NCBI GenBank assembly: GCA_963818475.1
Contig: CAWFSF010000006.1
Location: forward strand, 1,440,001 to 1,504,000
Origin: Nitrospirota bacterium
GTDB lineage: Bacteria; Nitrospirota; UBA9217
Length of the DNA stretch: 64,000 nt
Direction: 5' to 3'
Both the position numbers and the translations under genes were made by a program. Under the pieces are notes generated by a model. It worked only from the letters and a program-made list of their open reading frames with translations, was not told the DNA's origin and made no database searches. This document shows, piece after piece, positions 33,356-39,757 of this stretch (the first letter of the stretch is position 1; every line of letters starts with the position of its first letter).

Positions 33356-33498
33356 CGGATCATGGCCGGTCCTGAAAACCGTGCAATGCGGATTGCAACC
33401 GTTAGCGCAGATTCTCGTATCTGCGCTAACTTATTTTCATATCAGCACCCGTGTGGTACAATAGAGCGGTATTGCATGCTGTTGCCAAAGGAGCCGCC

Positions 33499-35155
33499 AT
33501 CTCAACCGTTCATGGAAACATAGCCGGGCTTAAACCCGCGGAAATCAAGACACTGGAACGGCTTTATCGGAGAAAGAACCCTCCAAACACGCTGATCACG
33601 CCTGAAGCAGGCCGTGCGCTGACCGAAGCGTCATCGGCGATCAACAGACAGGTCGGTCTTATCATTGACCGCTCCGGCGCCGTCAAAGACGTGCTGGTCG
33701 GTTCCGACCGCGACATTCTCATTCCCGATCTTTCCGCATACCGGCTCGGCACGCGCCGCCTTCGCGGGGTCCGGTTCATTCATACCCATCTGCGAGACCA
33801 GCCGCTGAACCAGGAGGACCTCACCGACCTGGCGCTCCTCCGGCTCGACATGATCGCCGCGCTTACGGTCCGGCCTGACGGCCTGCCCGGCGCCATCTCC
33901 GTTGCCCATCTGGTGCCGCCGAACCAGGACCAGAAGCTCTACGAGATCCTCCCGCCCCGATCCATTCACGAGCTTGACCTCGATGCAGCCAACTTTATTG
34001 CCGAGATCGAACGTGAGATGGAGCGTGCCCAGACTGCGGTCGCAGTCGGAAAAAAGGACCGTGCCATACTGGTCAGCGTCTCTAAAAAAGGCCGGTCCGA
34101 GCAGGAAGAATCGATCGAAGAGCTCAAGGAACTCGCCCGGACGGACAACATCCAGGTGCTGGATGCCGTGATCCAGCGGCCCCATGACATCAATCCCCGG
34201 TTCCTGCTCGGCGAGGGGAAGCTCAAGGAGCTCATCATCCGCTCGCAGCAGCTCGGCGCCGACCTTATTGTCTTCGACCAGAACCTGACCCCGGCCCAGG
34301 TGAGGTCCATCGGCGATATGACCGAGATGCGCGTCATCGATCGCACGCAGCTCATCCTCGATATCTTTGCGCGCCGTGCACACAGCGGCGACGGCAAGGT
34401 CCAGGTCGAGCTTGCACAGCTCAAGTACCGCATCCCCCGCTTGTCGGAGCGTTCGACCGCGCTTTCGCGCCTCACCGGAGGCATTGGAGGCAGGGGCCCC
34501 GGCGAGACCCGCCTCGAGATCGATATGCGGCGGGCGACGGGACAAGCTGCGAAGGCTTGAAAAGCAGCTCGAAGCACTCGGCAAGGCGCGTCACCAGCGC
34601 CGGGAGCGGCGTGTCCGGAGCGCCATTCCCATCGTTTCGATCGCCGGGTACACCAATGCCGGCAAATCCACCCTTTTCAACACGCTGACAAGGTCCGCTG
34701 TTACGTCCGAGGACCTGCTCTTTGCGACGCTCGACACCGCAACGCGGAGGCTCCGTTTTCCGCGTGACCGCGAGGTGGTCATTACCGACACCGTCGGATT
34801 CATCAAGGACCTGCCGAAGGACCTGCTGGGTGCATTCCGCGCCACGCTCGACGAGATGCAGGATGCGGACCTGATCGTGCATGTCGTGGACATCAGCAAT
34901 CCCCGGTTCGAGCATCAGATGGAGTCGGTGGACAAATTGATCCTCGAACTCGGCCTTGACCATATCCCGCGGCTGGTCGTTTTCAACAAGGTCGATCTCG
35001 TGAATCCCCTCTGGGCGAAGGTCATCGCAGCTCGTTTTAACGGCGTCGTCTGCTCGGCGATACATCCGGAGACCTTCGGAGCTTTACTGGGGGCTATTGA
35101 GAAGAGGCTTTGGGGGGAAGAGAGTTCGGGGTCAGGAGTTCAAAGTTCGGAGTAA
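33499..35155 (+). CDS. hflX: GTPase HflX, long form (frameshift near 34535; probable ATC start)
   Basis: [57 protein letters not shown]. Confidence 0.95.
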
Positions 35156-35243: not shown

Positions 35244-36588
35244 TCACTTCCCGCCGATCGACAGTTCCCTCACGCGAAGCGACGGGCAGTTGATCCTGCC
35301 GGTGAACCTGAGGTCACTGCCCACAGCATCGATGTTTTTCATAAGATCAAGGATGTTGCCCGCAATCGTGATCTCGCGCACGGGATAGGCCTTTCTCCCG
35401 TTCTCGATCCAAAACCCGGTGGCGCCCACGGAAAAATCTCCCGATATGGGATTGGCGGTATGGATCCCCATCACCTCGGTGACATAGAGGCCGCTGCTGG
35501 TGGCGCTGATAAGCTCGTTCAGCGAGTAAGGGCCCGGCTCGACATAGAGGTTCGTCACGCCGACCATCGGCACTCCCTTAAACCCGCCGCGCATGCCGTT
35601 CCCGGTAGAGAGCGTCCTGTCCTTGTTGGCAGAATAGGTATTATAGAGGAACAGGGTGAGCCTGCCCTTGTCGATGACCGTTTTTTTCTTCGTGGGAACG
35701 CATTCATCATCGGACGGTGCAGTGCCGAGACCGCCCTCGAGCAGGCCGTCGTCGTACACCGTGATGAGCGGTGAAACGACCTCCTGACCCAGTTTCCCGA
35801 TGAACAGGGACTTTTTCTTTTGCACGTTCTCCGCCGAGAAACCGCTGGCCATGATCGCCAGGAATTCCTCGGCCACCAGGGCATCAAGGATCACCGGCGC
35901 CTTGACCGAACCAATCGTTTTCGCGCCGAGCAGATCGAGCGCCCTGCGCGCGGCGCGCCGTCCCACCTCTTCGATCCCGAGCTTGCGGTAAAACCTGTTC
36001 ACATCGAAGTCCGAACCGGCCTGCGATTCTCCCTGGTCCTCGGCAACCACTTCAATGCTCGACGAGGCTGCCGTGCCCTGGTACGAAACCAGCGCTCCGT
36101 GGGTATTGGCGATGATCGTCTCTGAAGACGAGAAGCTCGCCGATGCTTTTCGCATGCGCTTGATCCGCGGGTCGACGGCAAATGCCTCGCGTTCCATGGC
36201 CATAACGCGTTCGATCTTCTCTTTTTCGGATAATTGCGGTATCTCAGGATCGAACATGGCCACTGACCGGTAGGGCATCGACGGCTTTTCAGGAATGGCG
36301 TGGAAGGGATCGGGTTCGGTTGTGCGGGCGTTCGTAACGGCAGCTTCGGCCAGGACCGCGAGGGCGCTTGTCCGATAGATCGGTCGTAAAGGCAAAACCC
36401 ATGTGCCCGTTCACCAGCACACGCAGGCCCGCCCCGATATCATGAGCGCGGTCGAAGGCATCGACCTTCTGTTCTTTTACTTCAATGGATGTGGCACGAT
36501 AAGAACGGAGATAGACCTCTGCGGCATCAGCATGAAGGGACGAAGCTAGCGTGAGGATCTTATCGGCGGTCTGCGGGGTGATAACCAT
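35244..36588 (-). CDS. pmbA: TldE/PmbA family protein (frameshift near 36368)
   Basis: AGLRVLVNG..GFA, SDDECVPT, STGNG, ANPISGDFS, TIAGN. No HExxxH. Confidence 0.85.
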
Positions 36589-36703
36589 AGTAAATACCGT
36601 TGGACCAATGTGCTCCGTCCGCAATGACAGGACAAACCATATTCTTTGATGATCCGGCTGGATTCGACGTCATGCACCGCCGCAGTGCTGCGGCCATGAC
36701 CAT

Positions 36704-37072
36704 TTAGTCGAAGTAGCTGGCCGACGCAGTATCGGACTCCCATACCGTGACGCTCGCGACTTCGAGATCGTCGCCGTTGAGCTTCTTCGCCATGGTGTCG
36801 TAGATCCACTTGGCAAGGTTCTCCGACGAGGGATTGATCTGCGTGAACGGAAAGATATCGTTGAGGAATGTGTGCTCCAGCTGATCGAGCACCTCACGCA
36901 GGGACTTTTTGAGATCGTGAAAATCGACGGCAAGACCGATATCGTTCAGACGCTCGGCCGTCACCGCGATCGTAACGCGCCAGTTATGGCCATGCAATTT
37001 CTCGCATTTTCCCTGGTAACCGCGCAACTGATGTGCAGCGGCAAATTTAGATTCTATCATAAGTTCGTACAT
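36704..37072 (-). CDS. queD: 6-carboxy-5,6,7,8-tetrahydropterin synthase
   Basis: FAAAHQL..KCEKLHGHNW, PSSENLA, VWES. Confidence 0.95.
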   Translation of the reverse strand: MYELMIESKFAAAHQLRGYQGKCEKLHGHNWRVTIAVTAERLNDIGLAVDFHDLKKSLREVLDQLEHTFLNDIFPFTQINPSSENLAKWIYDTMAKKLNGDDLEVASVTVWESDTASASYFD

Positions 37073-37079
37073 GCCGAAA

Positions 37080-37190
37080 ATAATAAGTGATATACGATCA
37101 AATGTCAACACTAAACAGCCGGACGTGTTCCGGGTCCGGGCGTCATGGGAAGAAATATTTCTTGCAAATGAAGCTGAATTCAGATATCAT
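37080..37190. promoter_or_regulatory. Back-to-back sigma70 promoters for queD and the tandem hfq gene
   Basis: Minus strand TTGACA(37108)-17 bp-TATTAT-7 nt-ATG. Plus strand TTGCAA(37162)-17 bp-TATCAT-7 nt-ATG. Confidence 0.6.
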
Positions 37191-37197
37191 TTTTTTA

Positions 37198-37669
37198 ATG
37201 GAAGTGATGAAAGAAGAGTCGCGGCACACGATCGAACCACAGTTCCTGTCCCAGGCGCAAACAACCGGTGTCAGGGTTCGTATCGGCTTGATGAACAAGA
37301 CGGAACACGAAGGGATCATCCGCGATATCGGACGCTACGAGCTTAATCTCGAAGAAAACGGCAGAACGGTCACGCTGTTGAAGCAGGAAATTTCCTTTGT
37401 GGCCGCCCCCCACGCACTCATTGCCTCTCCTTCAGCTGCTACGCCGCAGGAACTGCCCGCTGCTGGAGTCTCCGGCAGGGAGACCAAATATCCAGCAGGA
37501 ATTTCTGGACAAAGCCATGGCCGAGAACCAGGTCCTTACCCTTTTTCTTATCAACGGCCAGCGGATCAAGGCGAACATCGAGGCATACGATAATTTCACG
37601 GTCCTGCTCAATGAAGGGGGCAGGCAGCACCTCTACTATAAACATGCGATCACCACGATCAATCGCTGA
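37198..37669 (+). CDS. hfq: Tandem two-domain Hfq-like protein (frameshift in linker near 37460)
   Basis: Domain 1 IEPQFL..VRIGLMN..GIIRDIGRYEL..LLKQEISFV. Domain 2 NIQQEFL..LFLINGQRI..YDNFTVLL..LYYKHAITTI. Confidence 0.8.
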
Positions 37670-37814
37670 CGCAGTATCCCTCTGAAAGTGTATCAGGTCA
37701 ATGATGGACAGGAAGATCGAACAGGCCAACAGAACCGCATCCAGGATCCCGCCTCAGTGCGCCGTCGTGCTGTTCCGATGTTCATCTGCAATCCTTCCCC
37801 GGTGAGGTACCCCC

Positions 37815-38219
37815 ATGGAAACGAATCTCCTCGATAGAATGCTGAGCTCCTACATGGCCGAACAGTCATCAGTGACGGTCACGCTTCAGAACAAGATCAA
37901 GATCTCGGGAAAGATCAAGGCTTTTGACAGTTACGTCATCATGATGGAGAAACCGAAGCGCGAGATCCTGTACCGGCATGCCATCTCAAGCATCGCGCTC
38001 CACCTGCAGGAAGAGATAAAGCATGCCCCGGCAGCGCCCAGACCGGCATTGACCAACAAGCCGTCACCGGTGAAGACGCCGGCCAGATCAACCAGACCTG
38101 CAGCACCGAAACCCCGTCCCCAGCAGCCAGCCACGCCTGCCGCAGCGGATCAGAACGTCAGCAACAGCATGAAAGAAGGGCTGCTCCGCTGGATGCAGGA
38201 ACAAAAGGCGGCAAAATAG
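37815..38219 (+). CDS. hfq: Hfq paralog with Pro/Ala-rich C-terminal tail
   Basis: VTVTLQNKIKISGKIKAFDSYVI..ILYRHAISSI. Confidence 0.8.
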   Translation: METNLLDRMLSSYMAEQSSVTVTLQNKIKISGKIKAFDSYVIMMEKPKREILYRHAISSIALHLQEEIKHAPAAPRPALTNKPSPVKTPARSTRPAAPKPRPQQPATPAAADQNVSNSMKEGLLRWMQEQKAAK

Positions 38220-38220
38220 C

Positions 38221-39757
38221 ATGAACCTCCGCACTGCGGCGCTGGCAGCCGTCTCAGGCCTGCTGTTGGCGGCTTCTTTTCCGACCATCCAGCTTCACCT
38301 TCTTGCCTGGTTCGCCCTGGTCCCCCTGTTCATCGCGCTCAAAGGCAGCTCCGTCAGGAACGGCTTCTGGACCGGGGGCATCACCGGCCTTGTCTATTTT
38401 GCCGGCACTGTGCATTGGGTCACCAATTCCGTCCATTTCTACGGCGGCGTACCGCTCATACCGGCTTCGCTGATCACCCTCCTGCTCTGCGCCTATCTTG
38501 CGCTCTACCCTGCCTTGTTCAGCGCGGCCCTGATACATATCAGAAAAAACCATCCGTCCCTGGCCTTCCTTGCGGCTCCTGCGCTCTGGACCGCACTTGA
38601 ACTGGCACGAACCTATGTGTTCAGCGGTTTCCCCTGGTCCCTGCTCGGGTATACGCAGTACACGGCGCTTCCCGTCATACAGATTGCCGACATCACCGGT
38701 GTCTATGGCATATCGTTCCTGATCGTGCTGGTGAATGCTGCCCTGGCCGAGCTGATTTTTGACCGCAAACGGTTCATTCCGCTGGTTGCGACGGGATTGG
38801 TCCTTGCGCTGGTACTTTCCTACGGTGTTCTGCAGCTCCGCACGCCCGAAGCAGAAGGAACCTTCAAGGTCGCGGTCATCCAGGGAAACATCGAGCAGGA
38901 CCAGAAGTGGGACCCTGCCTACCAGAAGCAGGTCACCAGCGTGTATGAACGGCTGACGCTCAAGGCCGCGAAGCTGCGTCCGGATCTTATCCTCTGGCCT
39001 GAGACCGCAACTCCTTTTTACTTTAACAGCCCGGGGAAGGCCGACCAGGAACAGACCGTCGACCTGGAGCGCTTCGTGAAAAGCAATCATGTTCCGATCC
39101 TGTTCGGAAGTCCCGACCTACGAGGTCCTTCCCGGAAGGGTGGTCCATCTCAGGAACTCGGCATTCCTGCTCTCCCCGGAAGGCGCGGCCCTGGCCGAAT
39201 ACCACAAGTTCCACCTCGTACCATTTGGCGAGTATGTTCCGCTCAAGAGTGTGCTTTTTTTCGTTGATAAAATGGTCCAGGCGATCGGCGACTTCCAGGC
39301 GGGCAGCGAATACACGGTCATGGCCGTTCCGGTCCCGGGTCAACAGGACGTGAAGGTCAGCACGGTCATCTGCTACGAGATCATCTTTCCGGACCTGGTC
39401 AGACGGTTTGTGAACAAGGGCGCCACGGTGATCACGACCATCACGAACGATGCCTGGTTCGGCCGCACGGCCGCTCCGTACCAGCATTTTTCCATGGCCG
39501 TGTTCCGCGCTGTTGAAAACCGCGTACCCGTGGCCCGCGCGGCCAATACCGGCATCTCGGGGTTCATCGACGCAAAAGGCAAGATTCTGCAGACATCCGG
39601 CATCTTTGTTGAGGCTGATCTCATGCAGGCGCTGGCCCCGGGCACCGTACGAACCTTGTATACCCGCTACGGGGATGTATTTTCGTACCTCTGCGTCATC
39701 TTCACGTTGACCGTACTTTCTGGATACCCTAAAAAGCCGCAGAGCAAAAAACGCTGA
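38221..39757 (+). CDS. lnt: Apolipoprotein N-acyltransferase (frameshift near 39110)
   Basis: GFPW..GYTQ, QGNI, WPETA, K.HLVPFGEY, ICYE, TNDAWFG, RAANTG. Confidence 0.95.

Follow-up and report, generated by a model that had tools for sequence, protein, structure and literature searches.

Two adjacent genes at positions 37198-38219 of a contig stretch from an uncultured Nitrospirota bacterium encode three divergent domains of the RNA chaperone Hfq, two of them fused in one protein. The stretch, referred to below as the window, comprises 64,000 nucleotides (nt) of contig CAWFSF010000006.1 (assembly GCA_963818475.1, positions 1,440,001 to 1,504,000, forward strand). Judged by sequence, these genes are a second, specialised Hfq system kept beside the housekeeping Hfq, in a tightly packed operon with the order tandem-hfq, hfq3 and lnt. 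The tandem gene encodes a degenerate Hfq domain (D1), a Pro/Ala linker and a near-canonical Hfq domain (D2), and hfq3 encodes a third domain (H3) followed by a long basic tail. On the evidence of structure models, the two products are proposed to assemble together into a single ring of six domains that has two basic tails and pockets of three kinds, a reading to which a probability of about 45% was assigned.

Domain classes and nucleotide pockets

D1 starts at the ATG at 37198 (MEVMKEE), ends in LLKQEISF and is followed by a Pro/Ala/Ser linker, and D2 is read in frame 2 with the motifs NIQQEFL and YYKHAITTINR. The hfq3 gene (37815-38219) has 134 codons, beginning with METNLLD, carrying the motif YRHAISS and a Pro/Ala/Lys/Arg tail, and ending in NSMKEGLLRWMQEQKAAK. 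Against the Pfam family PF17209 (gathering score 27), D2 gave 65.2 bits and gene 2 gave 52.5 bits, both above the cut-off. Against the equivalog model TIGR02383 (cut-off 61.7), D2 passed with 74.1 bits, gene 2 (49.7 bits) and D1 (14.5 bits) fell short, and the intact tandem proteins of relatives scored 78-87 bits. The original prediction, made from the letters of the window, of three divergent Hfq domains in two adjacent genes was borne out by these scores, with every quoted motif in its place; D1 is degenerate as described (LKQEIS for YKHAIS, Glu at the position of Q8), D2 is near-canonical, and gene 2 is a third paralog (YRHAIS, no Q8, Pro/Ala/basic tail and end helix).

Residues were compared in a joint alignment of the three classes with the canonical Hfq (table 1). 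Positions follow E. coli Hfq numbering, with the proximal uridine pocket formed by Q8, F42 and Y55-K56-H57 and the rim by R16, R17 and R19; the residue list for the proximal pocket is supported by PMC4174439. The whole uridine pocket (Q8, F42, YKH) is retained in D2, the pocket of H3 is only partly Hfq-like, and D1 matches at the aromatic residue and the Lys alone. A stacking aromatic and a pore-lining basic residue are thus kept in D1, D2 and Hfq3, the base-reading positions differ, and neither D1 nor H3 has kept the residues of the distal face.

Table 1. Residues of the four Hfq domain classes at functional positions (joint alignment).
Position	Canonical	D2	Hfq3	D1
Q8	Q	Q	L	E
Rim patch	RKEK	no conserved basic residue	no conserved basic residue	no conserved basic residue
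Y25	Y	F/Y	T	G
F42	F	F	Y	Y
Y55-K56-H57	YKH	YKH	YRH	LKQ

In a tree of the domains, D1, D2 and Hfq3 each formed a clade with 100/100 support on a long stem, and on this basis they are three old and distinct domain classes. The topology of the tree is star-like, with the canonical clade at its centre and with unsettled bootstrap values, and does not resolve the duplication order of the four classes.

The tandem protein has a median net charge of -2. The tail of Hfq3 (44 rows) has a median length of 52 residues and a Pro plus Ala content of 37%; its net charge lies between +2 and +8, with +5 as the median, and in the end helix M119, L123 and W126 are invariant (44 rows). The end helix was also considered as a docking peptide shared with other proteins, and this was rejected: three patterns, searched in six frames of the genome, matched hfq3 alone. 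A search of the ESM Atlas with Hfq3 residues 64-134 returned no usable match.

Canonical hfq, distribution and gene order

A genome-wide search located a canonical hfq, with a PF17209 match of 110 bits, at C6:811252-811437, far from the module at C6:1477198. It lies directly after miaA, where a separate canonical gene had been suggested to be sought, and is followed by a gene for a methylthioadenosine-phosphorylase-like protein, not by hflX. A canonical match (~108-110 bits) was present in 20 of the 24 other genomes of the family and in the carriers from families f3, f6 and f7; the family genomes without one (G002, G007, G013 and G022) are 90, 89, 85 and 63% complete, and every carrier examined at adequate completeness also has a canonical hfq. 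Within the family this protein is near-invariant; it carries RKEK at the rim and ends in an acidic tail of short length. As the canonical gene is kept beside the module in carriers, the module is, as far as the genomes tell, not a replacement for the housekeeping Hfq.

D2-type and H3-type matches stood side by side in 22/24 other family genomes. A D1 query of 301 genomes of the phylum found matches in families f1 (58/63), f3 (9/12), f7 (1/1) and f14 (1/1) and none in 223 genomes of other families; the query misses divergent forms, with 0/3 in f6 although G029 and G038 of that family carry the module. The operon is conserved across at least five Nitrospirota families, and in f3, f6 and f7 tandem-hfq, hfq3 and lnt follow one another in unchanged succession despite a D1 identity of ~30%. 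A further 55 loci from public metagenome-assembled genomes (MAGs) were collected with a tandem profile; their titles name Nitrospirota, Nitrospirae, Nitrospiraceae or Nitrospiria MAGs, and one is labelled Betaproteobacteria.

At 90% identity the tandem protein falls into 523 clusters, of which the best 120 cover the full query with 152-188 amino acids (aa), and Hfq3 into 590. Clusters of both are annotated only as 'host factor-I protein', 'RNA chaperone Hfq' or hypothetical, which makes the operon relevant to annotation as well. A D1 profile searched against 1.84 billion proteins (representatives at 50% identity) gave 17 matches at E up to 1e-3, some of them false, and by this measure the D1 family is narrow. 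Among these matches, P0248 (1425 aa) was rejected as a repeat artefact, since it matches the atypical Rib repeat (aRib) with 1341 bits; P0254 belongs to no Pfam family, and P0256 and P0257 are weak matches of more than 1100 aa.

Other candidate doubled forms were noted. P0252 (152 aa) is a different two-domain Hfq-like protein, with FKH for YKH in both halves and a Pfam Hfq match of 43 bits in two stretches, and looks like another, independent tandem Hfq. Atlas clusters of Hfq-domain proteins that resemble the tandem protein by features include one of 139 aa with Deferribacterota as its commonest phylum (0.90) and one of 164 aa from Pseudomonadota (0.89), and Hfq proteins that are extended or have two domains may thus occur outside Nitrospirota too. 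In the opposite direction, PF17209 at E up to 0.01 had no match in G027 (f4), G032 and G040 (f9) and G033 (f10), which are 99-100% complete, and some Nitrospirota families may lack Hfq while others have four Hfq-type domains.

The gene order is conserved. In the 55 public loci (L026-L080), hfq3 follows the tandem gene in 53, the other two contigs stopping there, and lnt (apolipoprotein N-acyltransferase) follows hfq3 in 50, the remainder being contig ends. The stop of hfq3 and the ATG of lnt are separated by 1 nt in 31 of 32 evaluable loci, and the stop of the tandem gene lies at most 18 nt from the ATG of hfq3 in 35/48. The conserved partner gene of the module is lnt, which the original prediction did not mention; it had pointed instead to hflX, 2 kb away, as an echo of the usual hfq-hflX linkage. 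The distance is right, hflX ending at 35155, 2 kb upstream of the tandem gene. The linkage itself was found, beyond pmbA, in only 8/34 evaluable loci and is missing from L026-L028, which are of the same genus; closeness to hflX is thus no conserved trait. Upstream of the tandem gene, queD was found in 40 and pmbA in 39 of the public loci. In family f3 (L081 1504-1992, L082 1484-1930), a gene for a Fur-family regulator lies directly upstream on the same strand, replacing the queD/pmbA pair of f1.

Reading frame of the tandem gene

In the assembly as deposited, the tandem gene is split between frames 1 and 2 within the linker. The supernumerary base is placed at 37465, the first G of a GG, and the two frames join once it is removed. 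The fusion was present in all relatives examined: D1, linker and D2 form a single open frame of ~153-165 codons in 19/19 loci of the same family (L007-L025; the linker is masked in L010), and D1 and D2 share one frame in all 46 of the 55 public loci that could be scored by motif patterns (9/55 were unscored).

Reads were examined in public sequencing runs, none of which held more than 14% of the sampled words, and the check accordingly refers to contigs of relatives and not to the source sample. A contig from run X1 (37418-37564, 98.6% alike, 2 other mismatches, depth 3.8) has one base fewer at 37465, and a contig from run X3 (2188 nt, ~91% alike, depth 8.65) has one base fewer at 37462. Other genes of this assembly are likewise split over two frames, namely hflX (33451-35155), pmbA/tldD (35244-36624, minus strand) and lnt (38221-39757), and miaA (L001 442-1402) and the tail of the canonical hfq (L001 1480-1836) are also frameshifted in the source assembly. 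In relatives' loci the halves of lnt share one frame in 46/49 and those of hflX in 7/7. Given the single frame in relatives, the contigs without the extra base and the frameshifted neighbouring genes, the D1/D2 frameshift most likely arose as an indel during assembly, as had been supposed at the outset, with the proviso that the supporting contigs come from relatives. The source assembly seems to be rich in single-base indels, and any frameshift in this genome is consequently to be distrusted. Programmed frameshifting was rejected, since the relatives have no shift at all.

Structure models and the proposed ring

The tandem protein was modelled using an alignment of 50 rows with the L007 form (157 aa) first. 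The model had a predicted local distance difference test (pLDDT) value of 85 and a predicted template modelling score (pTM) of 0.77; each domain consists of a helix and five strands (pLDDT 91-97; D1 93-97), and the linker (~residues 72-98) is of low confidence. Superposition of D1 (model residues 9-76) on solved Hfq chains by VIA-align gave Z up to 9.6 with a root-mean-square deviation (rmsd) of 0.6-1.2 Å over 61-68 residues, and 50/50 of the rows listed were Hfq, so that the doubt whether D1 has an Sm fold at all was answered by a full Hfq fold in the model. Foldseek aligned D2 to Hfq chains at 42-47% identity with TM scores up to 0.97 (normalised by target), and the Sm domain of H3 was modelled as a helix and five strands (pLDDT ~85-92). 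D1, D2 and H3 are accordingly all predicted to have the Hfq/Sm fold.

The complex was modelled, alongside controls, from two copies of the tandem protein and two of the Hfq3 Sm domain (residues 1-66). The 2:2 complex scored 0.84 in three runs, compared with 0.02 for the best of 3 controls; the mark applied to this score is reached by 116 of 157 solved complexes and by 2 of 215 mismatched pairs. The runs share at least 90% of their contacts, with partner pLDDT of at least 86. Strand 5 of D2 (149-157) lies against strand 4 (49-53) of one Hfq3, and strand 4 of D1 (56-61) against strand 5 (58-62) of the other. From these strand 4/strand 5 contacts the model is a closed ring of the order D1-D2-H3-D1-D2-H3.

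The proposed mechanism follows from this model. Two tandem and two Hfq3 chains would close into the D1-D2-H3-D1-D2-H3 ring, in which, as known from Hfq hexamers, strand 5 of each domain pairs with strand 4 of its neighbour, and the ring would present three kinds of nucleotide pocket, each twice. With three kinds of pocket it could, like the Sm rings of eukaryotes, read a mixed RNA motif rather than a plain U-tract. The basic rim patch of canonical Hfq is missing from D1, D2 and H3 alike, and the positive charge that holds RNA would then be supplied by the two Hfq3 tails. The domains, their fusion, conservation and gene order are observed and the fold is modelled; from these we infer ring composition, RNA binding and specificity. 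A fuller version, in which a natural heteromeric bacterial Hfq ring (D1-D2-H3)x2 reads a specific RNA motif through its three unlike pockets and the end helix docks a partner, is offered more tentatively.

Alternative explanations

The original prediction had named a trimer of tandem proteins or a mixed ring as possible assemblies, and it is partly supported: of the three outcomes that were to refute it, none was observed, co-assembly being modelled. The 2:2 model represents the second of the two assemblies and does not separate the alternatives, and the main rival, which we consider somewhat unlikely, is that two separate rings are made, a (D1-D2)x3 pseudo-hexamer and an Hfq3 homohexamer, the operon merely co-expressing two RNA binders. 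A trimer of this kind was proposed for the two-domain Hfq of Zymomonas by Yang et al. 2010 (PMC2877685), bacterial Hfq rings are described as homomeric in PMC3710371, and the model of the tandem monomer already packs D1 on D2 (pTM 0.77). Against separate rings stand the constant co-inheritance of the tandem gene and hfq3, the confident closure of the 2:2 model, and the lack of Q8 and of the distal-face residues in Hfq3, which would make poor pockets in a homomeric Hfq3 ring; none of the three is decisive.

Several observations weigh against the mixed ring or against the data on which it is built. All chains in the complex are homologues of solved Hfq homohexamers, a pass is to be expected for any Hfq paralogues, and the 2:2 result may therefore reflect only the resemblance of its chains to Hfq hexamers of known structure; a mixed ring and a tandem trimer plus a separate Hfq3 hexamer are not told apart by it. 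The gap between the tandem gene and hfq3 is 29-379 nt in 13/48 loci, the window included, which shows that strict translational coupling is not universal and fits two separate rings. D1 scored 20-21.3 bits (E 5e-4) against PF17209, under the cut-off of 27, and its profile-profile probabilities were 21% with the canonical class, 33% with Hfq3 and 53% with D2, collinear but weak. The read evidence on the extra base amounts to two contigs of relatives, one at depth 3.8, and the RNA-library signal over D1 to two contigs from one library at 95-97% identity. All module carriers are uncultured MAGs, and the case is built from sequence, models and synteny.

A different and improbable role is that the tandem protein, Hfq3 or both insert into or cap canonical Hfq rings and so alter their activity. 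The presence of a canonical hfq in all carriers of adequate completeness, the Hfq fold common to all four domain classes and the basic rim that the canonical protein has and the module lacks would all suit such modulators; the great distance between the two loci (C6:811252 and 1477198), with nothing linking them, and a canonical Hfq that is almost invariant in all carriers alike speak against them. Still less probable is that no RNA ring is formed and the Sm domains have a role connected with lnt and the envelope, or use a histone-like tail to bind DNA. The adjacency of lnt, at a 1-nt gap in 31 of 32 loci and across five families, and the basic, Pro/Ala-rich tail point that way, and they are opposed by D2, which keeps every residue of the Hfq uridine pocket and passes the Hfq equivalog model, and by the Pfam search and the Hfq3 model, in which no membrane segment or envelope domain was seen.

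Least probable of all is that the copy in the window is a real pseudogene, the extra G being a true strain mutation and the product D1 plus a tail, perhaps with D2 started separately: the frameshift is present in the assembly as given, and a Shine-Dalgarno-like GGGAGA (37478-37492 region) precedes by 6 nt an ATC codon (37490) that is in frame where D2 begins, to be set against the 98.6%-alike contig without the extra base, at least four other genes within 6 kb that are frameshifted in this assembly and not in relatives, the rarity of ATC as a start codon, and the origin of the other split-lnt loci (L027, L042 and L074) in assemblies named in the same style. The GGGAGA itself is probably meaningless; it would permit translation of D2 alone were the frameshift real. 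The mixed D1-D2-H3 ring remains the preferred reading at the probability given above.

Features of the locus and the spacer

The features of the locus are listed in table 2. In the region of the promoter match, 7 promoter-like sites were seen where 1.8 were expected. In the spacer between the two Hfq genes, approximately the first 55 nt are near-identical to G004/L010 in the alignment, and the spacer is absent in G002 and G003; contigs from runs X3 and X2 skip 140-145 nt at this point. The spacer was considered as a structured RNA or a repeat and rejected as both, with a folding z-score of +0.79 and a single copy in the genome. Positions 36500-38700 had no match in Rfam, even with E values up to 1 allowed.

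Table 2. Coordinates of features at the tandem-hfq, hfq3 and lnt locus (window numbering).
Feature	Position	Strand	Remarks
Sigma-70-like promoter match	37162..37190	+	TTGCAA, 17 nt, TATCAT; consensus match only, 9/12 positions
tandem-hfq part 1, frame 1	37198..37464	+	degenerate Hfq domain D1 and start of Pro/Ala linker
D1 within tandem-hfq	~37231-37407 (Sm fold); 37240-37407 (Pfam match)	+	
Extra G in GG 37465-37466	37465..37465	+	splits tandem-hfq; probable assembly indel
tandem-hfq part 2, frame 2	37466..37669	+	linker remainder and canonical D2 (37490-37666); stop TGA 37667-37669
Spacer between the two Hfq genes, 145 nt	37670..37814	+	insertion common to G004 (same genus), absent in most relatives
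hfq3 Sm domain, residues 1-62	37815..38000	+	PF17209 52.5 bits; YRH for YKH, Leu for Q8
hfq3 disordered Pro/Ala/Lys/Arg tail, residues 63-116	38001..38162	+	pLDDT 46-61
hfq3 C-terminal helix, residues 117-132, and stop codon	38163..38219	+	conservation; pLDDT ~86
lnt (apolipoprotein N-acyltransferase)	38221..39757	+	starts 1 nt past hfq3 stop; split into two frames near 39100

Comparison with known Hfq and Sm systems

No paper on the Nitrospirota tandem-Hfq module was found in the literature searched, subscription journals being outside its reach, and we know of no bacterium for which a mixed RNA-binding Hfq ring has been shown. Multi-domain and multi-copy Hfq proteins are already known, and the Nitrospirota three-domain operon is a new form among them.

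The closest published relative in layout is a two-domain Hfq found in Zymomonas mobilis (ZMO0347) and in six further Sphingomonadales; it has two Hfq/Sm domains and a linker in one chain, and the authors of PMC2877685 raised the question of a ring built from three such chains. The family model NF010691/PRK14091 (Sphingomonadales) appears to describe the ZMO0347 type, since a canonical Hfq domain matches both halves of the model. Intact Nitrospirota tandem proteins scored 51.6, 42.3 and 45.7 bits against its cut-off of 270 and are hence not members; their first domain is degenerate, whereas both halves of NF010691 match canonical Hfq. Zymomonas is not known to have an Hfq other than ZMO0347. 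The Nitrospirota tandem gene, unlike those of the Sphingomonadales, sits beside a canonical hfq and is always accompanied by a third, tailed Hfq and lnt.

The module shares with the canonical Hfq homohexamer the fold of all three domains and, in D2, the residues Q8, F42 and YKH, and differs from it in having three unlike domain types, no rim patch and a basic instead of an acidic tail. Additional hfq genes are described for Burkholderia, Bacillus anthracis, Novosphingobium and Magnetospirillum in PMC3474761 and PMC6200039. Burkholderia Hfq2 resembles Hfq3 in being encoded by an extra hfq beside the canonical one and in its much longer C-terminal part; it is a lone gene with one Sm domain, and the text consulted reports no tandem partner or linkage to lnt. 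The Hfq3 tail is rich in Pro, Ala, Lys and Arg. The tail of Burkholderia Hfq2 is Ala/Pro/Lys-rich.

Sm rings of eukaryotes provide the nearest parallel for the assembly. According to the review PMC3710371, Hfq rings are homomeric and mixed Sm rings are mainly eukaryotic, perhaps also archaeal, and the eukaryotic Sm/Lsm heteroheptamers consist of several paralogous subunits in fixed order that arose by gene duplication. The operon differs from these in that its sequences are of Hfq type, two of its three subunits are fused, and the assembly is a modelled one. For specialists in RNA chaperones and Sm evolution it would serve as a test case, both for how Sm rings turn heteromeric by duplication, fusion and loss of pockets and for the range of targets open to an Hfq ring that is asymmetric. 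In its logic the modelled (D1-D2-H3)x2 ring matches the Lsm(6-5-7)x2 hexamer. If true, it would show that the transition of Sm rings from homomeric to heteromeric has a counterpart in bacteria, seen here at a stage with one fused pair and one subunit still free.

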